Notes under the pieces: generated by a model
The model's database searches: none
What the model was told of the DNA's origin: nothing
What the model saw: the letters and a program-made list of their open reading frames with translations, nothing else
Source of the DNA: a virus
Virus record (IMG/VR): IMGVR_UViG_3300033112_000310
Span: 44,441 to 108,440 of that record
Length of the DNA stretch: 64,000 nt
Reading direction: 5' to 3' (one strand)
Made by a program: the position numbers and the translations under genes
Shown here: positions 18,020-63,896 of the stretch, one piece after another
How positions within the stretch are numbered: the stretch's first letter is position 1
Layout of the letters: every line of letters starts with the position of its first letter

Positions 18020-18023
18020 ACGG

Positions 18024-18216
18024 TGGCGGAAGGGAAAGGATTCGAACCTTCGTGCGCGGCGACCCGATTACCTATTCTGTTTCCGTTCAAACCCTAGGCT
18101 CTGAAAGGAAACAGAAAGGAATCGACGCGAGGAAACCGGCATGACCGACACCGACCCGAGGGCAACCGCCCTCCCGGTTAGCAACCGGGTGCTTTAGACC
18201 GCTCAGCCACCCTTCC
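18024..18216 (-). tRNA. tRNA-Ser (anticodon GCU) with a 121-nt structured variable region
   Basis: GGAAGGG/CCCTTCC acceptor, G73, CCA, D arm, CCCGG-TTGCTAA-CCGGG, GAAGG-TTCGAAT-CCTTT; positions 18052-18172 lie between the anticodon and T arms. Confidence 0.85.
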
Positions 18217-18226
18217 GGGCAAGAGA

Positions 18227-24319: not shown

Positions 24320-24320
24320 G

Positions 24321-27300: not shown

Positions 27301-27737
27301 GCTTCCGCGAACGCGATGAGCGCCGTGGCTTCCGCGTCGGTCAGGGCCGCGTTGGTACCCTGGTTCGACCAGGTGTACGGCTCGTTCCTGTCGGAGGAAC
27401 CCGGAGCTTGGATGGTCACGGAGCGCGTGCCGTTCGTCAGCGTCAGCGTGCCGCCCGTCTCCCAGGCGTCCGAAAGCTCGCGGTTGTTGTTCCCTGTGTC
27501 CGTGGGCGTCTGGCCTATCTCCAAGTCCAGGGATACGCCGCCCACGCCGTCCACGAGGATGTTCAGTTCCGAGGGGTAGGCGGTTCCGCCCGCGCCCGCG
27601 CCCGACGCCTTGCGCAGGTCCGACACGACCTGCTCGTCCGAAATCCTGCCCGCGTCGTAGGAGACGAAGGTGGTTCCGGGTCCGAGGGCCGCGCTCTTGG
27701 AGAATCCGGCGGAAAGCGTCCAGGTCTGGCTAGCCAT
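24321..27737 (-). CDS. FN3/PKD and collagen-linker modular tail fibre protein
   Basis: DDGGSAITGYQWRY...GLTNGSVYEAQFKAVNSVG type FN3 unit twice; Gly-X-Y linkers; modules shared with neighbouring genes. Confidence 0.8.
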   Translation of the reverse strand: MASQTWTLSAGFSKSAALGPGTTFVSYDAGRISDEQVVSDLRKASGAGAGGTAYPSELNILVDGVGGVSLDLEIGQTPTDTGNNNRELSDAWETGGTLTLTNGTRSVTIQAPGSSDRNEPYTWSNQGTNAALTDAEATALIAFAEAAQTNQAGTLVLDDGQVATAPARGGTPTTTPGDGSGKWVAAAPDDGGSAITGYQWRYKLTSAQAWTSSNESSNTLNLSGLTNGSVYEAQFKAVNSVGAAAQWSPSGALTPRASLPVASAPQTVTIGPVADGDEGTTVKLGATVTKGTGLYDTGPVYAWTVRQGNTDVTSAVLDDATLASPTFTRPQVSADTDYTVGLSVTVRGNGTTARNGTSATKAATAVTTTVENVPAPPVATVPARGTAPAANASAGRIAWTATAPNNGGAAITGYDWRWRRVGTQSWTTISTTGRTLTRTGLTAGQRYEAQFKARNRVGAAAQWSPSGTATVPTTSLPAPTPPTVVINPVPDGNEGVGVRLTARLTGGSSGVTYAYAWTIDDATTGLDDATSASPLWTRPSVTSDTDYDIDLRVTVTGDGESHAGTATADAATVSSTVTDLPSSSRWDGTKTLRIGVSEDDENDIKALVAGSPLTVYADADNYGQYILKGAVAFAGTGAARTATFELTHVRHKGTVPDSGAVEIRYTPGGLPGIRGLAGYGAVIARTTKASSTANLNATRWHLDGAATDWTGNRTFSIRVTEAEETAIGLIGAGALVTIYRDKDNWADYTLTSVAFTGSGTGRTAALSLAFVEGFGKPPASGEAELHYTPKGDPGKDGRPGRAGVSTWVDSQFRDSGTPADGDLFVPLGSPASFTDELDEDNAESVSQLTIQAPDGSAMHAFLTQVEQGDIVVMWLDDANWIDYLVTSRNAVSSGFVVVNVRHVEHRLAGGIPNGSIRLGFSKAPKGVAGRPAAGTILNYDDIGNINNNGGYQFREADKSGIGGNWSDVRNNAAFLRIGDADSDGNDTTKVIESVEPGEVVTWLVGDHRWMAWEVTSNASVTGGREWGIELIAEDETGNTGAVSINPGTKVKIIVSADHRAAVAAFTGVEKKDTSYLTGKGTATDKLAVDADALGGNVEVAKAKTNSYLTGTGKDDDGLAVDRDAIVAGLFSGVSFTVS

Positions 27738-27740
27738 GCG

Positions 27741-32743: not shown

Positions 32744-33316
32744 CTAACCCGTCCTTGCTTCGATCAGGGACACGCGCGGGACCGCGATGCCGTGGTCGTT
32801 GGTTCCGAAGGTCAAGCCGCTGCCCGCCCGGTGCTTCACCCGGACGGTCGGCGTGAAGTCCACGGCCGCCCCGTTGGTCACGGCGTTGACGAGCGCCGGT
32901 TCGATGTACCGGGTACGCCCGGTTCCCGCTTCGGCGATCTGGTACAAGGGCCGCGCGCCTGACACCTGGAAGAACGCGCCGACCGGTACGGCCACGCTGA
33001 ACACCACTTCCTTCGCGCCAATCGCCTTTCCCCCGTTGAAGGTCGCAGCCGCCGGGGGTTCGATGCCAAGTCCCTGGAACCAGTCGAAGTCGAAGGCCCG
33101 TCCCGTGCCGTAGCGGTTCTTGTGGCCCATCAGGACCATTTGGGCGCCGCTCGCTTCGACTTCCGTTTCGGCCTCAAGGTCGAACGCGAGCGTGTACCGC
33201 TTGTTCATCCCGCCGGTGGACACCTGCTCGACACCGCCCGCCCGCGCGTCTTCGGAGTCGTCCTCCCATCCGGGCGTCGCCGGGTGCATGATCGTGTAGC
33301 CGAGAAACGTGGCCAT
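32744..33316 (-). CDS. distal tail protein (putative)
   Basis: Directly after tape measure; GRAFDF and IEPAL motifs. Confidence 0.6.
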   Translation of the reverse strand: MATFLGYTIMHPATPGWEDDSEDARAGGVEQVSTGGMNKRYTLAFDLEAETEVEASGAQMVLMGHKNRYGTGRAFDFDWFQGLGIEPPAAATFNGGKAIGAKEVVFSVAVPVGAFFQVSGARPLYQIAEAGTGRTRYIEPALVNAVTNGAAVDFTPTVRVKHRAGSGLTFGTNDHGIAVPRVSLIEARTG

Positions 33317-36300
33317 CAGCGCAGAATCCCCCGCGCCCGTAGCTGACGCTCGACCACATGGCTGTACTCCTCGGCCTTCTGGTAGAACACGTCGTCAACC
33401 TGGTCGTCCAGGCGACCGACCAGTTGCGGCGCGAACACGAACTGGTTGCCGCCGCGTATCTGGTCGAGCGGTATCACCGTGCCTTCGACCTGCGGCAACA
33501 GCACTTCCGGCCCGGCTTCGCCCACGGTGTAGAACTGGCCCGGTCGTACAGGGCCGCCGTACTGGCGCCCGCCACCGAACCCAAAGCCGCTGGCGATGGA
33601 ACCGAGGATGGCACCGAAGTCGATGTTGGAGAAAACCTCGTCCAGCGACCGGCTCAATAGCGAAGCCGCGATGGCATCCAGTACGCGCCGTCCGAAGTCG
33701 TCAAAGTCGGCTTCGCGTATCGATTCCTCCAAGCTGCCTCGAATGGCGTCGCTCACGTCGTCCCCGTAGAGGGCGAAGTCGCCTAGTTCGATCCGCCGCT
33801 GCTCGCGTTCCAACTCTGACTGCGCGGCCGCCAGCAGCCGGGCTCCTTCTTCCGTTTTGATGAAGGAGTCGTCGAGATTGAGTATCGCCTCCGACAACTC
33901 GTTCGCGCGGCGTCGGGAGTCGGATCGCACGGCAAATCCGGGGTCGGTTTGCCCAAGGATGGATTCGAGGATGTCGGCATTCGTTCGGGCGGCTCGTCGT
34001 CGTGCATCGCCGATCCGCTTCTCCAATTCGACGACGATTGCCGACTCGCGGCCTAATTCCCGGCGGATGGGGATCAATGCGCGGTCGTACTCGGCGACCT
34101 GTTCCAACGCACGGATTTGCGGGTCGAACTGGCCCAACAGCGATTGCGCCAAAGCGCCCGGCAGTCGCTCGAAATCGGCCTCCATCTCCGCCAACGCTTC
34201 CCGAGCTGCTTTCACCGCAGCCGCCGATGCGTTGCCGCTATTGGCGAGCGCATCGAATTCCGCTTGAAGCGTCTCGATTTGGAGGCCCGCACGTAGGATG
34301 GGGTCGTCCTGAGCCGCAAGCCTGCGCAACTCCCGATCCGTCGCATCGCCGCCGGCTTCCCGTGCCAGCGTCAATCGCCGCTGAGCACGTATCAACAGTT
34401 CCGTTCCGGCCACCGTTGCGAGGAGGCTAGGGGCCAACAGGTCCAACGCGCGTTGCTGTTCCTCCACTTGCAGCAACGCCTGGCTGGTCGGATCGCCGAT
34501 GATTTGGCGGGCCTGATCGGTAGGCAGACGGGCAGCGGACTCGCGCAGACGTTCCAGTGCGTCCCTTGCCGCTTGGATGGCCGGTGCCGATGCGTTGCCG
34601 GACGTTTTCAACAAGTCGAACTCGTGTTGCATGTCGGCCACTGCCAAGGACGCCGCCACGATGGGATCGTCGCGCCCGGCCAAGGACAGTAGTGCGCGGT
34701 CGGTCGCAGCCAGCGCCGCGGAACGGCGGATGTCCAAGGCGTCTTCGGCACGCTCCAACAGCATCGCTCCTGCTGCCGTCCTCTCGAGGCTTCTGGTCAG
34801 CCGGTCGAGTTGCCGGGCTTCGTTCTCGACCGCTAACAATGCCGTTCCGGTCGGGTCGCCGACGACGCGACGGGCCTCATCAATCGGAAGACGTGCAGCG
34901 GAGTCGCGCATCCGATCGATTGCTTCTGTCGCGGCACCGACGTCCGTCCCGGCATCCCCGGCCGTCTCGGCGAGCTTGCCCAACTGTTGGGTCAACCGAT
35001 CCGCTTGGAACAGGGCTTCCGCCTCCGGGTCGCCACGCACGGCGATGGCCCGTATCTGCTCGGCAGCTTGCTGCCGCTCGGCCTCCTGTGCTTGCGCCGA
35101 GTTGATGGTGCGGATGATTTTCCGCAGTTGGCTCAGTTCCTTGGTTGTGAGTTCGGAGACGGCAGCTTCGTAGTCGAGAGTCCCGGCGGCTGCTTGAGTG
35201 ACGGCCTGCGACAGTTTGCCGGACGCATCGCCGAGTATCTGGTCGGCGACCGCGAACGCGGATGCCAATTCAATGCTGCCAGCCGAAATCCCACCGGTCG
35301 CGTCCTCGAATGCCGCTCTCGCGGCTGCAATCTCGGCCTGCCGGGCGGCATCAACCGGCGGAACGGCGGCAGCGGCAGTCGCCGCTGCGCTCGCACGGTC
35401 GAATGCGGTCGAGACTTCATCGAGTCGCCGTGTGAGTTCCCGAAGGCGAGGTCCGAAAACATCCTCTGCGGCGGTCCTTGATCGCTGATCGGGAGCTCGC
35501 GCGATGTCATTGTTGATGTCTCGTATCTCCCGACGAAGGCGTAGCTCCTCCAGAGAGAGGTCGGTCAGATGCTGGTACGAGTCGATCAGATCGTCGGTTT
35601 CCCTGCGGATGTCAGTCGAATCCCGGGGCGGGGTGATGCCAAACGAGCCTGTGACGAATGCAAGTTGGAGCCGGTCGTAGTCGAACGCCGCCCCGGCAAC
35701 CCTTTCCTGCCGCCCGATCTGTTCGGCGATTTCGCCGACCAACGCACGAAAGCCACGCACCCCCCGTGCGCGGGCGGCCAACTCATCACCGACACCGATG
35801 AGTACCTGGCGGAGGTTGACGGCATCCGCCGCCATGTTGCTGATTTCCGCCGTCAAGGCCGTGGCACCGTTAGCCGCCACTTGAAACGCTTGGCCGAAGG
35901 TGCGGGTCAGGTTCTGGAAGTCACCGTCGATGTCTTCGGCCTGTGTCTCAATCGCCGCAAGGACGCGCTGTGTCGTCAGCAGGCCGGCTTCCGCCTGCTC
36001 GCGCAGTTCGCCCACGCCGCTCAACCCGAGTCCTTCGGCCAGCGCCCGCGACAGGCGGGCGTTGCCTTCCAGCACGCCGCGCAGTTCGTCGCCAGCCAGC
36101 CGGTTGGACGCCAAGCCCTGGGTGAACTGGATTGTCGAGTTGACCGACTCCCGGATGGTCGCGCCGGACAACGCGTAGGTCTGCTGGATGGCGCGCGCGA
36201 TCCGCAGTTGCCGTTCCTGACTGATGTTGAACTGCTGCGTGGTCAGCGCGATGCGCGAGACGAGAACGCCGGTCGCCTGGATGGACGTGAGCGTGTCGTT

Positions 36301-36615
36301 GGACAGGCCCACCACGTCTTCCAGCGTGGCCGACGCCCGGGCGGAGCGCAGCCGGTTCTGGATGTTGGTGATTTCGTCCGCCGCGTTGACGAGCGCCCGG
36401 GCCGTCCGCCGCGCAGCCTCGAACCCGACCAACGCGACGGCACCGCTGCGGAACGTCGAGAAAACGGAGTCGGAGAACTGGCGACCCGCACGACTGCCAA
36501 CCTGGAAGTCCCGGCGGGCCGAGCGGACGAACCGGTTGATGGCCTGTTCGGCTTCGCGCGACCCCCGGCGGATCCCTCTGGTGTCGGCGGTGAATCGGGT
36601 TATGTAGTCAGGCAT
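33316..36615 (-). CDS. tail tape measure protein
   Basis: IQFTQGLASNRLAGDELRGVLE tape-measure domain; Ala-rich helical repeats; C-terminal GGPVRPGQFYTVGEAGPEVLLP. Confidence 0.95.
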   Translation of the reverse strand: MPDYITRFTADTRGIRRGSREAEQAINRFVRSARRDFQVGSRAGRQFSDSVFSTFRSGAVALVGFEAARRTARALVNAADEITNIQNRLRSARASATLEDVVGLSNDTLTSIQATGVLVSRIALTTQQFNISQERQLRIARAIQQTYALSGATIRESVNSTIQFTQGLASNRLAGDELRGVLEGNARLSRALAEGLGLSGVGELREQAEAGLLTTQRVLAAIETQAEDIDGDFQNLTRTFGQAFQVAANGATALTAEISNMAADAVNLRQVLIGVGDELAARARGVRGFRALVGEIAEQIGRQERVAGAAFDYDRLQLAFVTGSFGITPPRDSTDIRRETDDLIDSYQHLTDLSLEELRLRREIRDINNDIARAPDQRSRTAAEDVFGPRLRELTRRLDEVSTAFDRASAAATAAAAVPPVDAARQAEIAAARAAFEDATGGISAGSIELASAFAVADQILGDASGKLSQAVTQAAAGTLDYEAAVSELTTKELSQLRKIIRTINSAQAQEAERQQAAEQIRAIAVRGDPEAEALFQADRLTQQLGKLAETAGDAGTDVGAATEAIDRMRDSAARLPIDEARRVVGDPTGTALLAVENEARQLDRLTRSLERTAAGAMLLERAEDALDIRRSAALAATDRALLSLAGRDDPIVAASLAVADMQHEFDLLKTSGNASAPAIQAARDALERLRESAARLPTDQARQIIGDPTSQALLQVEEQQRALDLLAPSLLATVAGTELLIRAQRRLTLAREAGGDATDRELRRLAAQDDPILRAGLQIETLQAEFDALANSGNASAAAVKAAREALAEMEADFERLPGALAQSLLGQFDPQIRALEQVAEYDRALIPIRRELGRESAIVVELEKRIGDARRRAARTNADILESILGQTDPGFAVRSDSRRRANELSEAILNLDDSFIKTEEGARLLAAAQSELEREQRRIELGDFALYGDDVSDAIRGSLEESIREADFDDFGRRVLDAIAASLLSRSLDEVFSNIDFGAILGSIASGFGFGGGRQYGGPVRPGQFYTVGEAGPEVLLPQVEGTVIPLDQIRGGNQFVFAPQLVGRLDDQVDDVFYQKAEEYSHVVERQLRARGILR

Positions 36616-41684: not shown

Positions 41685-42047
41685 CTATTTCGCGCCACCC
41701 GGACATGCCGCGTCGTCGCACATCGTCGCCACCCCGTTTTCCACCAGGAAGTGGCACCAGTTCGCCGGCAGGTCGGACAGGTTGCGACCGTGCACGCGCC
41801 GGAAGTCCGGCGACGGGCCAACGCGACGGCTGCCCACCGAACCGTCCAGCGTCAGCGCACCTTCGGCGTCGAACGAAATCAGGTGGGGCGGGGACGTGAC
41901 GTAGACCTCGCGTCCGCCGCACGGACAGACGAACACGATTGCCTGCGGGGCGTCGGAACCGAACGGCCAGTGGATCACCGTGCCGTCCGCGTCCGACGGG
42001 CGGTGGTATTCGGTGGCCGTGTCCCGAGACTTCCGGTAGATGGTCAC
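41685..42047 (-). CDS. DUF6527-like protein
   Basis: FVCPCGG...LTLDGSV...WCHFLVENG. Confidence 0.65.
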   Translation of the reverse strand: MTIYRKSRDTATEYHRPSDADGTVIHWPFGSDAPQAIVFVCPCGGREVYVTSPPHLISFDAEGALTLDGSVGSRRVGPSPDFRRVHGRNLSDLPANWCHFLVENGVATMCDDAACPGGAK

Positions 42048-42736
42048 GGCTTCTGCGGCACGCCCCGCTCGTCCGCGTCGACCTTGCACCCTCCCTTGCC
42101 GAACACCGCGGCCAGCGCGTCCCGTTCCGCCCGGTCCACGGACAGCCCGTGCTTGCGCTTGACCGCAACCCATGTGCCGACATACCAGCGCACCCGCTTT
42201 TTCGGCAGCCACTCGGCGGGATCCTTGTCCACCTTCTCGTAGCGATTGACGCTCGGCAACGCCAAGGTCAGGTTGTCGAGGTCGCGGGCGAATGCGGTGC
42301 GCGTCGCGCGGTCGGCCCGGCACAAACCGCTGTCATGCGCTTCCGCCGCCGCGACAATGTGCTCGATGTCGGTGTCCCGGAGCGAGCGGACGCGGACACC
42401 AGGCATATAGGGGGACGGGAAGGGTCGGTCGAGCCACGCGCATCGGCTTTTCGGCTCGCCGCCGCATAATTCCTCGTCGAGTCCGTACCCCGCCCGCTCC
42501 GCGATTCTCCATTCGATGCCGCTGACATCGTGGTCGTAGTCCCTGTCGCGGTTGTAGTCAGAACAGCGGTGCTCCGGTTCGACCACCAGGCCGCACCACG
42601 TCTCCGCTTTCGACTCGTCTGCCGCAGCGCATTCGGCGATGAAGCCGACCGCGACAAGGCCGCACAGGGCCAGCACGGCGACCACGCCGATTGGTTCGAC
42701 CTTCTCGTAACGTGGCTTTATTGCGATTCCCTCCAT
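42044..42736 (-). CDS. secreted HNH-type nuclease (DUF1524-like)
   Basis: Signal/TM helix; DIEHIVAAAEAHDSG...FARDLDNLTLA..VNRYEKVDKDPAEWLP. Confidence 0.8.
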   Translation of the reverse strand: MEGIAIKPRYEKVEPIGVVAVLALCGLVAVGFIAECAAADESKAETWCGLVVEPEHRCSDYNRDRDYDHDVSGIEWRIAERAGYGLDEELCGGEPKSRCAWLDRPFPSPYMPGVRVRSLRDTDIEHIVAAAEAHDSGLCRADRATRTAFARDLDNLTLALPSVNRYEKVDKDPAEWLPKKRVRWYVGTWVAVKRKHGLSVDRAERDALAAVFGKGGCKVDADERGVPQKP

Positions 42737-43371
42737 TCCAGGTACGCCTTGTCGCGCTCGGCGGAACTCACCCGGCGTCCGACGGCGCGGCTGAGCGCCA
42801 AGCACTTGGGCTTTCCCCTGGATGTCCAGAACGCCCGGTTGCCCGGCTCGGCGTTGCGGATCGCTTCCACGACATCGTTTCCCGTATCCCTCGACTGCGC
42901 TTCATGGTCGAGCAGCCGGGTCTTGATGTTCGCCTTCGCGGACAGGATGCCCCCGGGGTCGTTCGCCATGTCGCGTTCCAGCCGCGCCCACAGTTCCCTC
43001 GCCGCGTCGTTCGCCGTGTCGTTGAGCTTGAGCGGGTGTTCGGAGGGGTCCGCCGGGCCGATCATGCCCGACCGCATGACGCGGCACGCCTCGTCGTAGA
43101 TGTCCGGCAGATAGTTCATGGGCAGTCCGCCGCCGAGGTCGCGCGCCCTCGCGTCCGCTTCCGCCCTGCGCCACTCGTCGATCGTCATGCCCGCGTCGGC
43201 GGCAAGCCGTTCCTCTTCCCGCAGAAGGTCGGCGGCACGCCGGTCGGCGTCAGACGTGTCCGGCGCGGCGTTCTGCTCGGCCATGTAGCGGTCCAGTTCG
43301 TCCTGCGCCCAATCGGTGCCCTGCGCAATTTCGCGCTTGAGATAGTCGATGTAGCCCTGGTCGATGCTCAT
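42718..43371 (-). CDS. hypothetical protein
   Basis: Start MSIDQGY at 43371; helical and acidic. Confidence 0.6.
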   Translation of the reverse strand: MSIDQGYIDYLKREIAQGTDWAQDELDRYMAEQNAAPDTSDADRRAADLLREEERLAADAGMTIDEWRRAEADARARDLGGGLPMNYLPDIYDEACRVMRSGMIGPADPSEHPLKLNDTANDAARELWARLERDMANDPGGILSAKANIKTRLLDHEAQSRDTGNDVVEAIRNAEPGNRAFWTSRGKPKCLALSRAVGRRVSSAERDKAYLEWRESQ

Positions 43372-54843: not shown

Positions 54844-56661
54844 CTACAGCGGGATTGTCTCGATCTTCGGCACCGGCTCGTCCGCCTCAAGGTTCATGGC
54901 CCGCCCGCATCCCATCGTGCAGCAGATCGCCCCGTCGATCTTCTTCGCCCGGTTCTTCGGTCGCGGCGGCTTCACGGTGTCGTCGTCGTACCGCTTGCCC
55001 ACGAAATTGTCCACCATCCAGTTCAACACGGGGTTGTCCGGGTGCCGGAAGCGCCCGGAGTCCACGGCGCTTTGGAACTCGTACATGGCGTTCGTGTACG
55101 TCGCCGCGCCCTGGCCGAACCGCACGATCTCCGTCCATACAACCGACTCCCCGACCGTCTGTTCCACGCCGCTCGATCGGTTTGGGTCGGTGATGTATTC
55201 CTTGGCCAGAAGATCGTTGAGCCAGTTGGTGATGGTCGCCGCCACCTTGAGAATGTCGATTTCCTCGCCTTCGTGAAGCGTGATGTACGGCTCCCACGGC
55301 TCGTAGCGCCGCACCTTCTCGAACGTGGCGCGCGGCAGCCAGAAGAACGGGACGGCCCAATAGATGCGCGGCCACTTCTTGGTGCCGTCCGCGAGCACCG
55401 CCGGCGTCACGTCCTTGTCGTCCTCGTAGAACAGGACCACTGCGGCGGTGAAGTCGATCTTGGCCGCTAGGTCGGTGACCACCACGCACGGCAGATGCTT
55501 GAGCATGTCGAACACCCGAGGGTCGTCCGGAGAGACGATTTCGGCGTCGGGATCTCCGTCCGTCCACCCTTCCTCGCGTTCCTTGTCTTCGTATTCGCGG
55601 TGCACCGGCAGCATGTCGTAGCCGTTCTGCGCCCAGGCGTTCATGTCGATCCAAGGGTCGGCCTGGCCAATCCAGATGTTCAGGTTCTTGGTCTTGAACG
55701 CCGTCTGCTGGTGCCGCGAGCGGATCGCTTCCTGCTGGTCTTCGCGCAGCGTCCCGATGAAGGTCGAATGGCCGATGTTCGGGTTGGCCTCGTACAAGGC
55801 CTCGTCGGTCTTCCAATGATCCGGGTCGGCATCGTCCTTGATCGTGTAGATGATGGCGAACTGGCGGTCGGCCTTCGTGTCGGTGAGCGTGCCGGCTAGA
55901 ATGTCCACCATGTCGCCGCGCAGCCGGTGGCACGGCCCGTCGATGTTGTCGCCCGCAGTGGTGATGACGAACAGCATGGCCCGGCGCCGTGCCCCGGTGC
56001 CGGTCTTGAACGTCTCGTAGGCCCGGGCGTGGTCGTGCTCGTGGTACTCGTCAATGACCACGAACGACGGGCTGTCGCCGTCAGGCGGATCCCCGACCAC
56101 CGGCTTGAAGCTCAGGTTCTCGCTGTCGTTGTAGATCGACTTTTGCAGCACGTCGAGACTCAGGTGCTGCCGCAGTTCGTCGTCGTCCCGGAGCATCTGG
56201 TACGCCGGGTGGAACACCTTGTAAGCCTGCTTCTCGTTCGTGGCCGCGCAGTAGACCTCCGCGCCCGGCTCGCCGTCCATCGTCAAGAAGTAGAGACAGA
56301 ACCCTGCAGCGAAGGTTGATTTGCCCGACTTCCTGGGGACTTCGACGTAGGCTTCCTTGTACTTCCGAAACCCCTTGTGCTCGCCCTCGGCGTAGTGCAA
56401 CCCGATGATGTTGGCGATGATGAAGCACTGGTAGGGGGACGGCTCGAAACGCTGGCCCCGCCACTCGCCGCTGACGTGCGGCAACCAGGTGAAGAACTCG
56501 CCGCAGTCGCTGACCGCCTGGCTGTCGTAGTAGAGGTCCGGGCGTTGCAGGTCGTCCGCGAACCGCTGGCACGCCTGGACTACGAACTTGCACGCCGGGA
56601 TGTTGCCGTGAAGGACGCCTTCGGCGTAGTCGAATGCGGTTTCGGTGAACCGGTCAGCCAT
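54844..56661 (-). CDS. terL: terminase large subunit
   Basis: VPRKSGKS Walker A, VVIDEYH Walker B, ITTAG, DLAAKIDFTA, KIDGAI. Confidence 0.97.
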   Translation of the reverse strand: MADRFTETAFDYAEGVLHGNIPACKFVVQACQRFADDLQRPDLYYDSQAVSDCGEFFTWLPHVSGEWRGQRFEPSPYQCFIIANIIGLHYAEGEHKGFRKYKEAYVEVPRKSGKSTFAAGFCLYFLTMDGEPGAEVYCAATNEKQAYKVFHPAYQMLRDDDELRQHLSLDVLQKSIYNDSENLSFKPVVGDPPDGDSPSFVVIDEYHEHDHARAYETFKTGTGARRRAMLFVITTAGDNIDGPCHRLRGDMVDILAGTLTDTKADRQFAIIYTIKDDADPDHWKTDEALYEANPNIGHSTFIGTLREDQQEAIRSRHQQTAFKTKNLNIWIGQADPWIDMNAWAQNGYDMLPVHREYEDKEREEGWTDGDPDAEIVSPDDPRVFDMLKHLPCVVVTDLAAKIDFTAAVVLFYEDDKDVTPAVLADGTKKWPRIYWAVPFFWLPRATFEKVRRYEPWEPYITLHEGEEIDILKVAATITNWLNDLLAKEYITDPNRSSGVEQTVGESVVWTEIVRFGQGAATYTNAMYEFQSAVDSGRFRHPDNPVLNWMVDNFVGKRYDDDTVKPPRPKNRAKKIDGAICCTMGCGRAMNLEADEPVPKIETIPL

Positions 56662-57277
56662 CCTTGGCCGGCGGCTTCTTCGCGAACCGCTTGGACGCTT
56701 CGATCACCGCCCCCCGGTCGGCACGTTCGACGGCTTTGTCGCCGGCCTTCGGACGCGCCGGCGCGCTGCCGCGGCCGCGGGACTGGCCTTCGACACCGGA
56801 GAACCTGCCGGCGTCCTTGGGCGGCGGTGCCGCTTCCAGCCGTTGGCGACCGACCGGGTTGCGCCCGAAGTCCGTCCACTGGCCGCGGAGTTGCTGCAAT
56901 AGCTGGACGGCGAGACGCGCGCTAGGCGCGGGCATCGGGCCGGCAGTGCGTTGCACCGTCAGTCCGTTCTCCGAAACGTCCTGCGCCGCCTGCCAGAAGG
57001 TGAACGTGGCCCAACACTCGGCCGCCACCGCGTCCCGGTCGGGGTTCTGCATCACGCCGGCGGTCGCGTACTCCCTCACCCGGTCGCGGTACATGGCCCG
57101 CAGTACCCGGGCCTTGTCGGGCGGCTGCGTCTTGACGAGCGCCGCGAAGCCGGGCGGCAGACGATTGATCAGGTGTGTTTCGTAACGCGGTTGCAGCGGG
57201 TTCATCCGGCTCGGCTGAGCCGTGCCCCGCCGTTCCTTGGTCGCGTCCGGGAGCGCCTTTCCCGTCTTGTTAGCCAT
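56654..57277 (-). CDS. terS: terminase small subunit (P27 family)
   Basis: Overlaps the terL start; K..RGT...R.N...P N-terminus; DFGRNPVGRQRL. Confidence 0.85.
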   Translation of the reverse strand: MANKTGKALPDATKERRGTAQPSRMNPLQPRYETHLINRLPPGFAALVKTQPPDKARVLRAMYRDRVREYATAGVMQNPDRDAVAAECWATFTFWQAAQDVSENGLTVQRTAGPMPAPSARLAVQLLQQLRGQWTDFGRNPVGRQRLEAAPPPKDAGRFSGVEGQSRGRGSAPARPKAGDKAVERADRGAVIEASKRFAKKPPAKDG

Positions 57278-57419
57278 CGTTAACCCCGCCGATCAAACTA
57301 GCGACAAGCGTCCTGCGGATGTGGTCGTATGCGCGCTTGGCGAGCGCGTGTTGGTGGACGAAGCCGACGACGTAGCCGACGACCACGGCCGCCACGAGCC
57401 ACCACCAGTCAACCACCAT
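57270..57419 (-). CDS. small membrane protein (49 aa)
   Basis: Read manually: MVVDWWWLVAAVVVGYVVGFVHQH...; stop overlaps the terS start region. Confidence 0.55.
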   Translation of the reverse strand: MVVDWWWLVAAVVVGYVVGFVHQHALAKRAYDHIRRTLVASLIGGVNDG

Positions 57420-57427
57420 GATCGAGC

Positions 57428-57700
57428 CTACTGGACGTGCTGAACCACAACGGAGATTGTGCCTCGGGTATCCACCGCGACCACTGGCGGCACGTAAGCG
57501 ACCACCGATGGATCGTCGGGATCAGGAACGATTGCGCCGGGGTCGGCCGACCAGGTGTATCGCGTCGTCCGGGGAATCTCCACGTCGCCGACCAACTTTG
57601 GTTGCGTGTTCGGTGTCTTGCGAGCATCCGCTAACGCGCGGACCCCGACGCCGGCGAACGGCAATAGCGCCAACAGCCGGAACAATCCTCTTCGGTTCAT
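57428..57700 (-). CDS. twin-arginine-leader protein carrying a major-capsid-like peptide
   Basis: MNRRGLFRLLALLPFAG leader; LVGDVEIPRTT matches capsid LVGDVAIPRQT; GGGAG SD. Confidence 0.7.
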   Translation of the reverse strand: MNRRGLFRLLALLPFAGVGVRALADARKTPNTQPKLVGDVEIPRTTRYTWSADPGAIVPDPDDPSVVAYVPPVVAVDTRGTISVVVQHVQ

Positions 57701-57762
57701 CCGTCTTCTCCCGTCATCCAAGTCGCCCGGAGCGTGGCTGACCATTTTGCGAATGGAACGAG

Positions 57763-57948
57763 TCACGCGCAAATCGGGTCTTCGCCTTCCGCGTCCCTGA
57801 TGTCAGCGCGCAGCATCCACCCGTCCTGCAACGCCTGCACGTAAGACTCGTACCGATCCGCGTTCGCGCGTGTAACAAAGCTGCGGCCAACAAGGGCAAT
57901 CGGCAACAGCCCCAACACGCGCCGGAACAGTCCCCTTCGGTTCATCAT
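57763..57948 (-). CDS. twin-arginine-leader protein carrying a portal C-terminal-like peptide
   Basis: MMNRRGLFRRVLGLLPIAL leader; 16 of 25 residues identical to the portal C-terminus; GGAG SD. Confidence 0.75.
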   Translation of the reverse strand: MMNRRGLFRRVLGLLPIALVGRSFVTRANADRYESYVQALQDGWMLRADIRDAEGEDPICA

Positions 57949-57995
57949 CTCTCTCCGTCATTCGAGCCGAACAGGCGCGAACATACCACGACTCG

Positions 57996-58328
57996 TCAGC
58001 GCCGCCGGTAGTCCCATCCGGTCTGGCGCTCACTGGCGGATTTCCGCCCGTGGCAGGACGAGCACATCGAAACGAGGTTGTTTGGGTCGAAGAACAGCTC
58101 GGGATCGCCCCGGTGGGGCGTGTCGTGGTCGGCGACCGTCGCCTTCCTGCCGCAATCGCACCACGGCTCGCGGGCCAACTGGTCGGCCCGCAGCCGGCGC
58201 CATTCGGCGGTGCCGTAGAGCCTAGCGCGGTTCGCGGGTTCGGCGTCGGCGTGGTCGCCGCAGTACCGCCCGCGCGTCAGGTTCGGGCATCCGGGGTGTT
58301 CGCAAACCTGGCGCGGACGGGTGGCCAC
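57996..58328 (-). CDS. HNH endonuclease (HK97 gp74-like packaging cofactor)
   Basis: CEHPGC...YCGDH; LAREPWC..ATVADHDTPHRGD..LFFDPNNLVSMCSSCHGRKS. Confidence 0.92.
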   Translation of the reverse strand: MATRPRQVCEHPGCPNLTRGRYCGDHADAEPANRARLYGTAEWRRLRADQLAREPWCDCGRKATVADHDTPHRGDPELFFDPNNLVSMCSSCHGRKSASERQTGWDYRRR

Positions 58329-58331
58329 GGC

Positions 58332-58853
58332 TCAGGCGATGGAGACTGTTTCCGTCTTGAAGGTGCCGTTGTCGTGCCGCGTGATGTCCGTTCGACGCTT
58401 GCTTCCTCTCGGTACCGTCAACGTCTTGACGCCGTGCACATCGAAGAACGACGACAGCTTGCGGTGAAGGGTGTCGACGTGTCTCTGGGCTTGTTCCAAG
58501 CCGTCCCGCGCGTGCTCGACTTCTTCAAGCGCATGAACGTAGCGCACTGGAATCTGAACGTCCAAGGCCACCACCGATGCGATGTCGGGATCAAGCCCCA
58601 TGCGCGTCAACTGGTCGCGCTGCATGGCGCCGAACTCGATGGGCGTCCTGCCTTCGGACGGCGGCGGCGGCGGCTTGTCGATAACGCTAAAGCCGTGCGT
58701 CTCACGGTAGGACGCCACGGGTTCCGCCTGAGCCGACGGTTCCGCCTCGGCAAAGACCAAAAGCCGTCCACCACCCATGTCGCGGATGTACCGCCCTTCA
58801 ACGTCCACGAACGCGGATTGGTGGGGTGCGAGAAAGATTCGGTAGATTCTCAT
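58332..58853 (-). CDS. hypothetical protein
   Basis: 173 aa with GGAG SD. Confidence 0.65.
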   Translation of the reverse strand: MRIYRIFLAPHQSAFVDVEGRYIRDMGGGRLLVFAEAEPSAQAEPVASYRETHGFSVIDKPPPPPSEGRTPIEFGAMQRDQLTRMGLDPDIASVVALDVQIPVRYVHALEEVEHARDGLEQAQRHVDTLHRKLSSFFDVHGVKTLTVPRGSKRRTDITRHDNGTFKTETVSIA

Positions 58854-58908
58854 GTCAAGTCTCCGTTGTAGGTAAAGTCGGATGCCCGACCGACCCTAAC
58901 CACAACGC

Positions 58909-59226
58909 CTAGCATTCCCGCAGAACGCCGGCCTCGACCCAACCGTGCCATATGGTCCGCTCGCCGCTCTCGAACCGCACCTTGTGGTGCAGCGACGGGT
59001 GCAGCGTCGGCGCGTCGTCCGGCCCGTCGCACGTCCAGGTGTGCTCGCTGCCGTCGCTCGCCTTGACCGTCCGCGGACTGATCGGCCACGCCGCCATCAC
59101 CTTCTTGCCGTTCAGCCGGTCGGGCGTGCAAAGGTAGAGTTCGCGGGTGCCGTCCCGGTGCCGTATCCAGTGGAAGTCGCCCGGTTCGCGAACCGCTTCC
59201 ATCGAGAACCGCTCGTGCATTCGCAC
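58909..59226 (-). CDS. DUF6527-like protein
   Basis: WTCDGPDDAPTLHPSL...WHGWVEAG. Confidence 0.7.
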   Translation of the reverse strand: MRMHERFSMEAVREPGDFHWIRHRDGTRELYLCTPDRLNGKKVMAAWPISPRTVKASDGSEHTWTCDGPDDAPTLHPSLHHKVRFESGERTIWHGWVEAGVLREC

Positions 59227-59235
59227 GGCGACGGC

Positions 59236-60558
59236 TCAGCTCGGGTCGCGCGGCTGCAACGCGCCGATGAAGTGGCGCTGGAAGAACGCCAGCAGGAAGG
59301 CGCGCTGCTCGTCCGTCAGGTTGTCCATGCCCGGCACCATGTCGCGGTTCGCCGGAACCATGTTGGCCGGGACAAGCACTTCGTCCATGCCGGCGACCAT
59401 CGGCTTGCCTTCCTTCCCACGGACTTCCGAGCGCAGAAGCCAGCCGTCCATCAACGCCTGGTGGTAGGCCTCGTAACGGTCCTTGATGTTCGCCTCGAAG
59501 ATCACGTCGTGGTCGAACTCGTAGAACAGGCCGTGGCCGCGCTCGCGCCGCGTCAGCAGCTTCCGGGTGCACTCCTCTTCCCACACGATGTAGTTCGGAA
59601 TCATCGTGTGCTTGCCGAAGTGCGCGTCCTGTTCGATCGCGTTGGTGAACGTGTTGTGCTCCAAATCCTGCACGAACACCGGCGGCACCCGGTAGATGCC
59701 GCACACTTCCGACCGGTTGAATTGAAGCCACTGCAACGTCTGCGCATCGACCGGGCTTATCATCGTCGGCTTCCACTGAGCGCCCCTCGGGAGAATCGGC
59801 GTCTGGTTGGACGAACCCCCGTCCTGGCCGAACTTCTCCCGCCAGTTCTCCGCGAACTCATCGATCGCCCTGACGGTCATGTCGGTTTCGACCACGCCCT
59901 TGGGACTGCCGCCGCGCGCGTAGAACCGCCCCGTGTGGATGTGCGCGGCCAACCCCTGGCCGATGACCTCGCGCGCAATGCGGATCGGTGAATAGCCCTG
60001 AATGCCGTTGAACCCTAGATTGGGGATGTGCAGCACGTCGTCGGCCATCAGCCGGCGCGTCTTCCTGTCCTTGCCCGGCCCGCGATGGTCGCCGGTCACC
60101 AGGTAGACGAGCGACCCATCCTTGAGGTACTCGGGGGTGACCTGCTCGGCGTAGAGCATCCGCACTTCGATTGGGAACGGCCCGTCGCGGATGATTTCAG
60201 CGTAGCCGTTGCCCCAACCCTGACGTTGCGCCTCGACCGACTGCTTGAACGTGTACGGCGTCTGGTCTTCGTTGGGCAGCGACGACATCAACCCGAACAG
60301 CCGGTGGTTCACCGCCGGCTCGGCGCCCCGACCGTCCGGCAGACGGCGCATCAGCCGCAAGGGGGTGCGCGCCAGCGTCTCGCTCAGAACCTTGATGCAC
60401 GCGTGGACGTAGCTCAACTGCATGGCGCGCGTCACGTTGACCGCGACGCCCGACGAGTTCTCGCCTTCCTGCTTTAGCAGCCACTCCGCGTACTTCGACG
60501 CGTTGCCGATCGCCTGGAAGTAACGCTTGGTCGCGTAGAAGAAGTTCGTCAGTTCCAA
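59236..60558 (-). CDS. HK97-family portal protein
   Basis: YVHACIKVLSETLA, GWGNGYAEI, DVLHIPNLGFNGIQGYSPI, IYRVPP. Confidence 0.97.
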   Translation of the reverse strand: MELTNFFYATKRYFQAIGNASKYAEWLLKQEGENSSGVAVNVTRAMQLSYVHACIKVLSETLARTPLRLMRRLPDGRGAEPAVNHRLFGLMSSLPNEDQTPYTFKQSVEAQRQGWGNGYAEIIRDGPFPIEVRMLYAEQVTPEYLKDGSLVYLVTGDHRGPGKDRKTRRLMADDVLHIPNLGFNGIQGYSPIRIAREVIGQGLAAHIHTGRFYARGGSPKGVVETDMTVRAIDEFAENWREKFGQDGGSSNQTPILPRGAQWKPTMISPVDAQTLQWLQFNRSEVCGIYRVPPVFVQDLEHNTFTNAIEQDAHFGKHTMIPNYIVWEEECTRKLLTRRERGHGLFYEFDHDVIFEANIKDRYEAYHQALMDGWLLRSEVRGKEGKPMVAGMDEVLVPANMVPANRDMVPGMDNLTDEQRAFLLAFFQRHFIGALQPRDPS

Positions 60559-60670
60559 AGGTCGCGCCCTCGCCGTTCACCGATGGTCGGGCGGAACGGA
60601 CCCGCCGAGAGCAATCGGCCGCCGGCGGGCGACCGGGCGGGACCGTCCGCCCGCCCGTCGAATCGAACCG

Positions 60671-60961
60671 CTACTTCTTCGGCGTCGGCTTCCGGGTGCC
60701 GTCGCCGCTCTCGCCGCCGCCGTTGTCGCCGCCGTTGTCGCCGTTGCCGCCGTTGTCGCCGCCGTTGTCGCCGCCCGGATCATCGTCCGTAGGCTGACGG
60801 CGGCGGTTGCGCGGAGCCGTCGAATCCTCGAACAGCGGCACGCCTTCACGCGACCGGTGCTTGAGCGCGTTGTAGTCGTTCGCCGGCATCTGCACGCGGT
60901 CGCCCTTGCTGCGCGCCCTGCCTTGAACGTACATGTTGAAGTTCAGTTTTACCCACTTCAT
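60671..60961 (-). CDS. small head-associated protein with GGDN repeats
   Basis: GGGAG SD; KGDRVQM motif; low-complexity tail. Confidence 0.65.
   Translation of the reverse strand: MKWVKLNFNMYVQGRARSKGDRVQMPANDYNALKHRSREGVPLFEDSTAPRNRRRQPTDDDPGGDNGGDNGGNGDNGGDNGGGESGDGTRKPTPKK
60712..60776 (-). repeat. imperfect 12-bp tandem repeat (GGCGGCGACAAC) encoding GGDN
   Basis: Visible in the sequence. Confidence 0.85.
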
Positions 60962-61007
60962 GGTTGTTGTGCTCCCGTCAACTCGTTTGGGTGTGTGCCG
61001 CCGCGCG

Positions 61008-61412
61008 CTAGGTGTACTGGCCGCGCGTCAGCAGGAACGCGGCGCCGACGTTCAGCGATGCCCCCGTTCCCGTCTCGGTAACCACCGCACGGACGTACCG
61101 CTTGCCGCCCAGGTAGGCATCGAGAATCGCCGCTTGGTCGACGGTCGTCGCATTGATGACGCGGGACGCCTCGCCGGAAGCCATCATCCCGGCCTCCACG
61201 TCCGCCCAGGCGGTGCCGTCGTCGCTGTCCTGCACCTTCAAGGTGTAGTAGTTCGCCGCGGTGAGGCTCGCGCCCGCCCCGACGACCCAAACGACGCCGA
61301 CCCCGCCGTGCTCGACCGTGTCGACCGATTCGCCGTTCGCCGAGGCCGACGCATTCTGCGCATCCAGCGAGCGCACCACGTCGACGTTGCCGAAGTCCTT
61401 CTTCTGAAACAT
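61008..61412 (-). CDS. capsid decoration/cement-like protein
   Basis: Directly after the capsid gene; LKVQDSDDGTAWADV...YLGGKRYVRAV. Confidence 0.65.
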   Translation of the reverse strand: MFQKKDFGNVDVVRSLDAQNASASANGESVDTVEHGGVGVVWVVGAGASLTAANYYTLKVQDSDDGTAWADVEAGMMASGEASRVINATTVDQAAILDAYLGGKRYVRAVVTETGTGASLNVGAAFLLTRGQYT

Positions 61413-61495
61413 GCCCTTCTCCTTTCGTTTCGGGTTGGGGCGGAACCCGATATTAGGCCCGCCCTTGTTTCACTTTGCGTTCGTGCCGTCTCCGC

Positions 61496-62983
61496 TCAGG
61501 CGAAGATCGCGAACGATTCCGGGTGCCGAACAGCCACGTCGCACGAGTGGAAGATGATCACCCGGACGGCACCGGCGGTCGAACGGCTGTAGGGGTCAAC
61601 CAGAATGTCCAGCATCCCCCATTCCCCGACAATGACGTCCGACCAGTTCCCGAAGAACAGTTCGTTCAACGTGATTTGGTTCGATTCGGCCAACGGATAG
61701 GGCAGCTTGTCCGCCAGGAACACGCCCGACCCCGGGTCGACACGCCTGCGCATCATGTTGGTCGTGATCGTGGCCCCGCCCGTGAACCCGAGGTTGCCCA
61801 TCAAGGCGTTGTCCGTCGCGATCTCCTTGCGGAGTTCGAGAACCCCCAACCACGTCGGGTCGCCCTCGTCGCCCTTCTTCGTGTCGATCTCGTTGATCGC
61901 CGTGTCTTCGTGCGTGACCGAACCGACGCCGGTTACGTTCTTGACGCCCAACGGTTGCCCGTTCACGCCCGTACCGCGGAACGCGGCCCGGTCTTCGGCG
62001 AGCGCCACTTCCGTCATCAGGTCGCGACGGATGAAGTTCTCCACGGCCACCGACGACTGCAACCGCAGCGCGCGGGTGTAGTCGGTGTACGCGCCGACCG
62101 TCCGCGGGGTCATCGTGATCTGGCCGACAGCCTGGTCGGTGTTGCCGACGTCGGCCCCGTCCTTCGGCACCCACGAGACGACGCCCGCGCCCGTCTGCCG
62201 CGGAATCGCCACGTCGCCCACCAGACCGGTAAGCATCGTGGCACCGAGCATCGGCAACGCCTGGTTGTTGCGCAGCAGTTCGATCATCGACTGCGGCCGC
62301 CAATCGACCCCCACCAGCGCGCCGGCGCCGGAGAAGTCGTCGGCCGACAGATCCCGCTGTTCGATGCCCCAAAGGTCCATCAGGGCACGGCCCGCTTCCC
62401 GCGCCATATCGCTCTTGTTGAAGATCAGGCACTTGAGCCGGGCAATCGCGGCCGCCCGCTGGCCCGTCACCACGTCGCCGTACACGTCGGGCGGAACGTA
62501 GAAGCCGAGCGGCGCATCCTTGATCTGCGCCGAGTACGCATCGACGGCCTCAAGTTCCATGCGCGCCGCCTCGCGGTCGGCGTCGATCGCACCCTTCGAC
62601 CGGGCGATGATCAGCTTGTTGAACGAGAAGTCGCGCATTTCCCGGTCGCTCAGGCCGATGGGGTCGGTCAACCGGTTGCTGTACTGGCCGACTTGAAGCT
62701 GACGCTTGATGGCCTGGCGCTGTTCGTGGATTTCGCCGCATTCCCGCTCAAGTGTCTTCTGCTCCTCGATTTCGTCCGGGGTCAGGTTCCTTGATGCGAG
62801 AAAATCGCCGATTTCCGACAATCTCACGCGTTTCTCGTGTTCCTGCTCGCGCAGCCGGCTTTCCCGCGTCCGCAGGTTGCCGCGCTGTTCTTCCGCAGTC
62901 GTCGTCGGGCCACCGCCGCCGGGGTTGTTCCCGCCGCCGTTGTTCCCGTCGCCGTTCCCGCCGTTGTTCGGTTCATCCGGCAT
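61496..62983 (-). CDS. HK97-fold major capsid protein
   Basis: N-terminal coiled-coil delta domain; GDVAIPRQT, AFRGTG..GQPLG, FFGNWSD, DVAVRHPESFA. Confidence 0.97.
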   Translation of the reverse strand: MPDEPNNGGNGDGNNGGGNNPGGGGPTTTAEEQRGNLRTRESRLREQEHEKRVRLSEIGDFLASRNLTPDEIEEQKTLERECGEIHEQRQAIKRQLQVGQYSNRLTDPIGLSDREMRDFSFNKLIIARSKGAIDADREAARMELEAVDAYSAQIKDAPLGFYVPPDVYGDVVTGQRAAAIARLKCLIFNKSDMAREAGRALMDLWGIEQRDLSADDFSGAGALVGVDWRPQSMIELLRNNQALPMLGATMLTGLVGDVAIPRQTGAGVVSWVPKDGADVGNTDQAVGQITMTPRTVGAYTDYTRALRLQSSVAVENFIRRDLMTEVALAEDRAAFRGTGVNGQPLGVKNVTGVGSVTHEDTAINEIDTKKGDEGDPTWLGVLELRKEIATDNALMGNLGFTGGATITTNMMRRRVDPGSGVFLADKLPYPLAESNQITLNELFFGNWSDVIVGEWGMLDILVDPYSRSTAGAVRVIIFHSCDVAVRHPESFAIFA

Positions 62984-63017
62984 GGTTCTTCCCTCTAGCT
63001 GTTGGTTACCCGCTCGA

Positions 63018-63896
63018 TCATTTCAGGGAATCGAGCAATCCCTTGTTCTCCCGCTTCTTGGCATCCAGCGCGCCCTTGAGCCGGTCGCGCTCGCCTTCGA
63101 GCTCGGTGATCTTCTCCCGCTGCGCCGCCGCGAGGTCGCGCAGGTTGTTCAACTCGACCATTTCCTGCGCCCGTTCCAGCGTCGTCGGCGCCGCCGGCGG
63201 AGGATTCGGATTCGGCTCGGACGGCGAGGGTCGCGAACCCCCTCCGTTCCCGCCGCCGTTGTTCCCGTCGCCGTTGTTTCCGTTCCCGTCGCCGCCGCCA
63301 GCCGCAGCCGCAGCCGCAGCCGCAGCCGCAGACCGCGCGTCCCGCCATTCCTGGAACGAACGCTTGGCGACCTCGCACGACGTGTCCGAATAGGCCGCGA
63401 ACGTCACCGGGCCGACATCGTAGAGTTCGTCGACCCGCGTGATGGTCCGCAAGTAGTCGTCGTCCGCCCGCTCGTCCCACTCGTAGGCGCCGGTGCGGAA
63501 GCTGAACGACGACTGCGAAACGTCCCCGCGCTTGATCGCCTGGTAGACCATTTCGGCGTTCGCGCCCGGCGGCATCTTGTTCCGGTAGCGCAGCCCGGTG
63601 TCGTCCACCGACAGTTCCAGGCTTTCGCTGATCTTCGTCCGGCCTAGCGGAAAGTTCGTGTCGTGGTTGAACAGGCACCTGCAGTCCGGGCCGTCCGCGA
63701 GCACGTCATCGAACGCCCCTACGGCGATCTTCTCGCTGTGCCCCGGCCAAAGCTCCGTCTCGGAATCGAAGACCGCCGCGTACCCTTCGATGAAGACCGC
63801 GGCGTCGTCGCCGTCGCCTTCGGCCCGTATCTCGATTGGCCCAAGGGCCGTGTCCAGCGTCCGGCGCTCGATCACGTTCGTCACTTCGTCCGGCAT
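63018..63896 (-). CDS. HK97-family prohead protease with C-terminal extension
   Basis: IEGYAAVFD, LFNHD, GLRY, SSFSF, ELYDVGPVTFAAY. Confidence 0.95.
   Translation of the reverse strand: MPDEVTNVIERRTLDTALGPIEIRAEGDGDDAAVFIEGYAAVFDSETELWPGHSEKIAVGAFDDVLADGPDCRCLFNHDTNFPLGRTKISESLELSVDDTGLRYRNKMPPGANAEMVYQAIKRGDVSQSSFSFRTGAYEWDERADDDYLRTITRVDELYDVGPVTFAAYSDTSCEVAKRSFQEWRDARSAAAAAAAAAAGGGDGNGNNGDGNNGGGNGGGSRPSPSEPNPNPPPAAPTTLERAQEMVELNNLRDLAAAQREKITELEGERDRLKGALDAKKRENKGLLDSLK
63301..63330 (-). repeat. (GCCGCA)5 hexamer repeat encoding poly-Ala
   Basis: Visible in the sequence. Confidence 0.9.

Follow-up and report, generated by a model that had tools for sequence, protein, structure and literature searches.

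Does a 90-codon open reading frame (ORF) in the late-gene block of this phage carry a piece of the major capsid gene and, if it does, could that piece act on the capsid? The ORF, here called sB, is indeed present on the minus strand with an ATG start, and a preliminary description saw in it a mimic of the capsid E-loop region, a free copy of which was thought to cap or poison capsid assembly or to titrate a capsid sensor. The first half of the resemblance is as had been described: LVGDVEIPRTT of sB and LVGDVAIPRQT of the capsid agree at 9/11 residues, and the agreement extends to the DNA, where 12 codons have 28/36 nt identical and the core aligned by blastn has 27/32. The reading that we prefer, and to which we give an even chance, is that sB is a lineage-specific chimeric mini-gene that arose by short-patch illegitimate recombination, encodes a protein predicted to be exported, and is likely to be without action on capsid assembly.

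The late-gene block and its small ORFs

The window, that is, the whole stretch of DNA analysed (64 kb, from base 44441 to base 108440 of a linear virus record of 111,982 bp, estimated to be 89% complete), has a G+C content of 65.5%, and its minus strand carries most of the genes. Among public runs, the stretch was met in a single one, a sponge metagenome that may be its source, and no RNA run was listed. The genes of the minus strand follow in the order protease, capsid, two small head genes, portal, DUF6527, a 173-aa ORF, HNH, three small ORFs, terS and terL; from HNH to terS, the three small ORFs are named sA, sB and sC (Table 1). The order of the relatives, as revealed by tblastn, is the canonical HNH-terL-portal-protease-capsid (12 loci tabulated, those reaching far enough; terS was too diverged for detection), and in the three closest relatives among these tabulated loci two small head genes also follow the capsid gene. 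The arrangement of the present phage, protease-capsid-..-portal-..-HNH-sA-sB-sC-terS-terL (window 54844-63896), amounts to the three blocks of the relatives in reversed order. Where ORFs were listed for the relatives' loci, the gap between HNH and terL holds terS alone in most; L027 and L028 have additional small ORFs between the two genes, and the slot thus tolerates accessory genes.

Table 1. Features of the locus and of related genes elsewhere in the genome (window positions unless stated otherwise)
Feature	Position	Strand	Remarks
sA, 61-aa ORF (60 aa from second ATG)	57763..57948	-	paralog of sB over first ~20 codons
Portal-derived patch, sA residues 28-61 (..ANADRYESYVQALQDGWMLRADIRDAEGEDPICA)	57766..57867	-	matches portal 360-389
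Shine-Dalgarno-like GGGAG	57708..57712	-	7 nt before sB ATG
sB, 90-aa ORF	57428..57700	-	ATG at 57700, TAG stop at 57428-57430
sB leader, residues 1-24, MNRRGLFRLLALLPFAGVGVRALA	57629..57700	-	RR n-region, 12-residue hydrophobic core, ALA at -3..-1
Capsid-like patch, sB residues 36-46 (LVGDVEIPRTT)	57563..57595	-	matches capsid residues 254-264
Weak match to second half of PKD-type (K319L-like PKD) Ig repeat, sB residues 46-87	57440..57565	-
sC, 49-aa orphan ORF	57270..57419	-	one hydrophobic segment; begins 8 nt past sB, overlaps terS start
terL	54844-56661	-
terS, small terminase subunit	56654..57277	-	downstream border of ~680-nt insert
HNH endonuclease	57996..58328	-	upstream border of ~680-nt insert
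Portal gene, 440 aa, PF04860	59236..60558	-	source-like stretch of sA patch at 59392-59482
Major capsid gene, 495 aa, PF05065	61496..62983	-	source-like stretch of sB patch at 62192-62224
Prohead protease	63018-63896	-
Second capsid paralog	L084:180-1127, genome 108520-109467		just past window 3' end
TMP_3-fragment ORF	L085:448-786, genome 40247-40585		~40 kb from tape-measure gene (window 33316-36615), adjoins CsrA homolog

Immediately upstream of the protease gene is a second HK97-type capsid gene, a paralog of 315 aa (PF05065) with ~30% identity to the main capsid, so that a capsid-family gene stands on either side of the protease. A G/N/D-rich low-complexity tract (GNNGDGNNGGG) is common to the N-terminus of the capsid (62900-62983) and the C-terminal part of the protease (63200-63330), and the 96-aa head gene (60671-60961) has a similar G/N/D-rich tract. 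Elsewhere on the minus strand of the window are three large paralogous tail-fibre-like proteins of 1218, 1138 and 1485 aa (20663-32198), with repeated Ig/FN3-like modules in common (up to 46% identity over ~280 aa), and a pair of tRNA-Ser genes, side by side, with the anticodons TGA and GCT (17930-18217).

The capsid-like patch of sB and the portal-derived patch of sA

The capsid stretch to which sB had been compared comprises residues 254-283 (62135-62224). Its second part, in which W, G, A, V and D were said to fall in register, comes to 5/15 residues and 22/45 nt, about what random sequences give, and is unsupported. The motif of the first part, L-[VR]-G-[DN]-V-x-I-P-[RK], is present in the capsids of all 10 relatives recovered and is conserved in the lineage. 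A comparison of profiles, which the preliminary description had suggested as a check, turned out against it, with no capsid match of sB in Pfam, PHROGs or NCBIfam, even at E 10; over the domain of the HK97-fold major capsid (PF05065) sB has no profile match, and what it shares with that protein is 11 residues only. The AF2 model of capsid residues 215-495, built from a 12-sequence alignment, is unusable (pLDDT 31.7); the order of its elements is an N-arm helix, a hairpin (266-273/291-299) and a long helix, and from HK97 topology we take this hairpin to be that of the E-loop. By the element order in this unusable model, the capsid motif should sit just before the first strand of the putative E-loop hairpin. 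The ESM-Atlas model of sB is of low confidence (pLDDT 0.42).

By itself, the 9/11 match is only moderately significant. Pairwise BLASTP of sB and the capsid gives an E of 0.003, and the Smith-Waterman score was reached in 3/2000 shuffled controls; against such controls, which the preliminary description had named, the significance of the alignment is moderate and varies with the null used. Ranked by shuffle p among 136 predicted phage proteins, the capsid comes second against sB (p 0.0011), after TerL (0.00076) and before a 119-aa protein (0.0031), and since the matches to TerL and to the unrelated 119-aa protein are judged to be due to chance, these p-values are optimistic. The TerL-like piece of sB (terL residues 370-402; 2/2000 shuffles, rank 1/136) has 24/42 and 22/48 nt identical, is without a blastn match and overlaps the PKD-like segment described below. 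Also attributed to chance was a g173-like patch (57498-57524 vs 58567-58593, 31 bits), equalled in 148/400 shuffles.

An all-against-all scan of the proteome yielded 34 pairs of 11-mers at 9/11. For 33 of these, paralogy, internal repeats, low complexity or a repeated 5' element provides the explanation, and only the pair of sB and the capsid is left without one. Shuffled proteomes hold 0.4 such pairs per genome (at least one pair in 7/20 shuffles), so that in comparing everything with everything a reader would come upon a chance pair in roughly one genome out of three. For sB and the capsid specifically a chance 9/11 pair is expected ~2e-5 times, and for sB and any protein ~1.5e-3 times (hand calculation). 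These rates bear in opposite directions on the possibility that the resemblance is a coincidence, in which case sB would encode no more than a small orphan protein, exported and carrying a degenerate PKD/Ig-like segment, and sA alone would hold a genuine piece of a structural gene: the rate per shuffled proteome suits it, and the expectations for sB itself do not. The same TerL match that was put down to chance adds to its case, having scored equally well yet lacking DNA support, as does the missing capsid profile match.

At the DNA level, blastn of the 751-nt region against the rest of the genome gives the portal match as the best, with 41.0 bits, and the capsid match as the second-best, with 36.5 bits. 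Dinucleotide shuffles reached 36.5 bits in 6/400 cases, and as second-best match in 0/400. Of the real 750-nt windows outside repeat families, roughly 26 of ~216 (~12%; hand classification) reach this score, and DNA similarity alone is therefore not decisive for the capsid patch. Coincidence would account well for a score often reached by real windows, and poorly for a capsid match that stands second to the portal patch, is in frame and on the same strand, and falls in an ORF that shares its leader with the ORF carrying the portal patch. It would also find some room in the PKD repeats of the protein P0006 (see below), in which an L-x-G (..SLDGS..) shortly before Y-x-W lines up, by eye, with LVGD of sB. 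On balance, we regard a purely fortuitous match as unlikely.

The capsid match is convincing mainly because the adjoining paralogous ORF, sA, holds a strong portal-derived piece. The last 31 residues of sA are identical to portal residues 360-389 at 18/31 positions, with 25/31 positives (E 1e-10), and none of 2000 shuffles reached the score (96, as against a shuffle maximum of 45). The top matches of sA are PF04860 Phage_portal in Pfam (293-321/321), PHROG 12 and 5929, and TIGR01537 portal_HK97 in NCBIfam (310-341/343), the Pfam and NCBIfam scores lying below threshold (13.5 bits vs 39.1; 15.1 vs 112); as sA covers only the last ~30 positions of the portal profiles, it is a fragment and not a portal. 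The piece is closer to the portal of the same phage, with 16/26 residues identical, than to any other portal compared, the 48 distinct pieces from 79 loci reaching 12/26 at most. For the portal, the AF2 model is usable (pLDDT 80.2), and in it the source segment forms two short helices (358-371 and 376-382) after a long helix (307-334), close to the C-terminal limit of the region alignable to HK97-type portals of solved structure. Identity of sA to the portal by codon position is 0.65, 0.85 and 0.58, the second position being the most conserved, and the ten differences from the portal miss all 6 family-conserved positions (P 0.035). This pattern hints at constraint at the protein level on the portal-like piece, which may then be more than raw material; alternatively, the piece could have come from a foreign, related portal.

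The borders of both patches are informative as to how the copies were made. In sB, the core of the capsid patch is flanked by stretches with 7/30 and 3/30 nt identical; in sA, the core of the portal patch (40/52 nt) has a left flank of 6/30 and a right flank of 15/30, so that the tract extends over ~78 nt at 55/78. Random flanks beside cores 77-84% identical are unlike what a long insert would leave on neutral decay, which argues that the copies were short from the start. Moreover, both patches lie on the strand and in the reading frame of their sources (chance 1/36, hand estimate), and both are in frame with their own ATG. We conclude that the 11-residue core of sB probably derives from a capsid gene, as a real but tiny copy of one of its motifs. 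Listed by source base, the mismatches are C7 A6 T5 G5 of 23 in the portal tract and G2 C2 A1 of 5 in the capsid tract, and a reverse-transcriptase family was found in none of the 138 predicted proteins scanned; with mismatches that are not adenine-specific and no reverse transcriptase encoded, a diversity-generating retroelement is excluded.

The remainder of sB, the shared leader and coding status

A phmmer search with sB of 1.84 billion representative proteins returned sB itself, a PKD protein of 1542 aa (P0006) and a Rib-repeat protein (P0007) only. P0006 contains ten K319L-like PKD repeats and matches with an E of 1.5e-6, summed over the repeats; residues 44-87 of sB are 33-41% identical to single repeats. 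A profile of nine P0006 repeats matches sB residues 46-87 with 16.1 bits, over profile positions 35-75 only, as against a maximum of 9.5 bits in 5000 shuffles, and it is also matched by tail-fibre proteins of the phage. Pfam's own K319L-like PKD model (PF22352) has no match in sB. A weak motif amounting to half a PKD/Ig-like domain is the better explanation for the second stretch of the preliminary description, and this PKD-like segment accounts for the look-alike of TerL as well.

The two ORFs begin alike. Both leaders open with MNRRGLFR and continue into a hydrophobic core that contains LLP, 15/20 aa being identical (E 1e-6); a GGAG precedes the ATGAACCGAAG start by 7 nt in each, and a 26-nt repeat, 92% identical and present in two copies 245 nt apart, spans the ATG of sA and that of sB. 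The layout read from the sequence is MNRRGLFR / LLALLPFAGVGV / RALA in sB and MMNRRGLFRR / VLGLLPIALVG / RSFVTRANA in sA, with hydrophobic cores of 11-12 residues and an AxA (ALA in sB, ANA in sA) immediately before the cargo; the best 11-residue Kyte-Doolittle window within the first 45 residues scores 2.16 in sB and 2.50 in sA. Both leaders conform to the layout of Tat and Sec signal peptides, in which a basic n-region with RR leads into a hydrophobic core 7-15 residues long and small residues stand at -3 and -1, and the RR, the hydrophobic core and the AxA are kept despite ~33% nucleotide divergence, with indels in frame. The curated Tat models of Pfam and NCBIfam (PF10518, TIGR01409) gave no match to the leaders at E 10; the ESM-Atlas neighbours of sA include Tat-signal clusters (scores 0.84-0.85), a weak result and a lead only. 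Taken together, the leaders of sA and sB are predicted to be signal peptides of the Tat/Sec type, which would direct export from the cytoplasm. No other ORF of the genome has a leader of the MNRRGLFR type. A canonical Tat-like NRRRILKGLGAGA motif is present in another ORF (13281-13685). Two further candidates for envelope targeting lie at 13281-13984 on the minus strand, where one ORF has an internal Tat-like NRRRILKGLGAGAAM motif that would become N-terminal if a GTG start were used, and the next, overlapping ORF has a lipoprotein-like start (..LLTAIGC).

Among 5.8 billion proteins sA, sB and sC matched themselves only, and nothing like these ORFs was present in 161 related loci. Viral contigs searched with sB gave one false match, in a tape-measure gene; portal scans of viral and metagenome contigs gave portals at best 47% identical and no sA- or sB-like ORFs; TerL patterns, tried as a route to relatives, gave nothing, and the phage GenBank collection gave a match to HNH only. 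Thus, sA and sB are seen in a single genome. When all six frames are scored by codon usage, the annotated one comes first in sA (0.226 bits/codon), sB (0.106) and sC, the score of sB being low when set against the small-gene median of 0.224. GC3 is 0.76 in sA and 0.71 in sB, as compared with 0.84-0.89 in neighbouring genes, as expected for decaying or young sequence. The small ORFs are compactly spaced on the same strand, in the manner of an operon; no terminator or promoter consensus was found on the coding strand between HNH and terS.

Could the interval between HNH and terS then be an untranslated, decaying scar of recombination or repair, perhaps beside the packaging site, its frames and Shine-Dalgarno-like sequences being leftovers? 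The orphan status of all three ORFs, their low GC3, the low codon score of sB and its mere half of a PKD-like domain would suit such a scar, and so would the other fragments and rearrangements of the genome and the Ku that it encodes. A scar would leave unexplained, however, why two diverged leaders both retain the order of n-region, hydrophobic core and c-region with indels in frame, why both patches are in frame with an ATG, why codon usage favours the annotated frame over the other five in each of the three ORFs, and why the spacing is as compact as in an operon, with sC overlapping the start of terS; moreover, a phage genome would presumably have shed such sequence, by now 16-30% diverged from its source, if it were useless. 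We therefore hold that a scar of this kind is doubtful.

Other kinds of element were also considered for the interval. The sole notable repeat is the two-copy, 26-nt repeat over the ORF starts, and there is no array of short direct repeats with spacers of about 30-40 nt, as expected of a mini CRISPR; Rfam matches are sub-threshold only, which leaves no known RNA element; and the spacer between sA and sB folds no better than shuffles (z 0.45). The frames of sA and sB are compatible with a fusion by -1 frameshift, but no slippery heptamer was seen by eye.

Origin and possible role of sA and sB

The two ORFs sA and sB share a leader cassette (Shine-Dalgarno sequence, ATG, MNRRGLFR, hydrophobic core and AxA) that is duplicated in tandem. 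In sA the cassette is joined, in frame, with ~78-100 nt copied from the part of the portal gene that encodes the conserved C-terminal helices, and in sB with what is most likely a 32-nt copy of the capsid LVGDV-IPR-T, followed by the degenerate half PKD/Ig-like segment. In the reading that we prefer, the patches may have been copied via template switching or (Ku-dependent) end joining, mechanisms that we infer because the phage encodes a Ku homolog (PF02735, E 1e-35; L086:12164-12940) and bears other scars of duplication and rearrangement. The mini-genes would have arisen in the accessory slot upstream of terS, and their products would be translated from the late operon and exported via Tat or Sec to the envelope, where an accessory role, for example in superinfection exclusion, is conceivable; the pieces of structural genes would have served as raw material and not as functional mimics. 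A further fragment of a structural gene occurs in a 112-aa ORF: over 80 aa, its tape-measure (TMP_3) piece shares 35% identity with residues 171-246 of the 1099-aa tape measure that the phage itself encodes.

HK97-like and lambdoid phages have mosaic joints and accessory 'moron' ORFs that stem from illegitimate recombination. The present locus resembles these in having small lineage-specific ORFs between conserved late genes and abrupt borders of homology; it differs in that the ORFs are in part 30-100-nt in-frame copies of the portal and capsid genes of the phage itself or of a close relative, joined to a duplicated signal-peptide cassette. Small phage proteins with an N-terminal signal or anchor that takes them to the envelope, as predicted for sA and sB, include the exported superinfection-exclusion proteins Ltp of TP-J34 and HK97 gp15. 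These are expressed from prophages and have no similarity to head proteins, whereas sA and sB lie in a late packaging operon and have no sequence relationship to them. Ig-like domains (PKD, Big, FN3) occur on phage virion proteins, and the fit of sB residues 46-87 to the second half of a repeat of the K319L-like PKD kind (PF22352), together with the matches of the phage's own tail fibres to the same profile, recalls them; in sB, in contrast, what is found is half a domain, undetected by the Pfam model and fused to a signal peptide and not to a virion protein. With respect to Ku, all of 11 Ku-encoding phages have had a part in recent genetic transfers, according to the portion of PMC8136500 that is accessible, and the present phage is like them in that a phage-encoded Ku goes together with recent gene exchange.

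If the preferred reading is true, the locus captures orphan phage genes in the making: a duplicated cassette of start and signal peptide has been joined, in frame, with stretches of 30-100 nt from essential late genes, in a genome with a Ku gene and other scars of rearrangement. To our knowledge, visible intermediates in the origin of ORFans are rare. That origin is still described as unresolved in the available part of PMC12315717.

For the action that had been proposed, in which a free copy caps or poisons capsid assembly or titrates a sensor, we found no positive support, because 11 residues only match and because the leader predicts export: a signal-peptide-like leader ending in ALA before the mature part would place sB away from capsid assembly, which is cytoplasmic. 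The closest precedent for such an action is offered by CpmA and CpmB of the SaPIs, cytoplasmic, conserved and satellite-encoded mimics of scaffolding that redirect capsid assembly; like the protein envisaged there, they are small, look like part of a protein of head assembly and disturb the assembly of capsids. In sB, by contrast, the likeness to the capsid is confined to 11 residues, the leader is of the export type, and the gene is an orphan that belongs to the phage itself. The pattern of conservation in the portal-like piece leaves the proposed action a small probability. Short capsid motifs can act on host defence, as in the case of the T4 Gol peptide with Lit and of the triggers of CapRel (PMC13581612, in the text available to us). 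In this respect there is a likeness to sB, in that a short capsid segment can be biologically active. The Gol and CapRel segments act inside the cell, as parts of the real capsid protein or fragments from it, and we know of no separately encoded, exported copy of such a segment.

It seems improbable that the capsid- and portal-like peptides are interface mimics or decoys, whether to poison head assembly in competing phages or to blunt the host's sensing of capsid and portal: although both copied pieces represent the best-conserved motifs of their respective families, all 6 family-conserved positions are retained in sA with mostly conservative substitutions, a stray ORF with a tape-measure fragment exists, and Avs sensors are triggered by portal, capsid, TerL and tape measure while Lit and CapRel sense short capsid motifs, the leaders predict export from the cytoplasm, the site of assembly and of the known sensors, the capsid piece is 11 residues, one strand in length, Avs sensors recognise whole folds over extended interfaces, and a literature search turned up no such decoy (for Avs, Lit and CapRel, the accessible sections of PMC13581612). 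In its most specific form, with sA and sB as tandem leader-plus-cargo mini-proteins whose cargos, the best-conserved interface motifs of portal (crown-side helices) and capsid (E-loop base), are deliberate mimics that would either sabotage the heads of competing, related phages or act as decoys for host receptors of portal, capsid and tape-measure proteins, and with the tape-measure piece as a stray elsewhere, the idea is in our view equally improbable. Were the pieces functional mimics after all, they would represent a new class of phage decoys or assembly inhibitors, aimed at proteins sensed by the pattern-recognition defences of bacteria.

Several other features of the genome were noted. 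A family of ~80-150-nt repeats recurs at 1-14 kb of the genome (L086:1100-14000), preceding many plus-strand ORFs or extending over their starts; the repeats read ..LTMAS.. in one frame and give the strongest intragenomic DNA matches, of up to 93 bits. An N6/N4 DNA methylase of 803 aa (L087:2114-4525) has a split domain and a sub-threshold match to intein splicing (22.8 bits vs a cut-off of 35.8), and possibly contains an intein. In addition, the phage encodes several more methylases, as well as an ArdC-like protein and, at window 42044-42805, a GmrSD_C-like domain.
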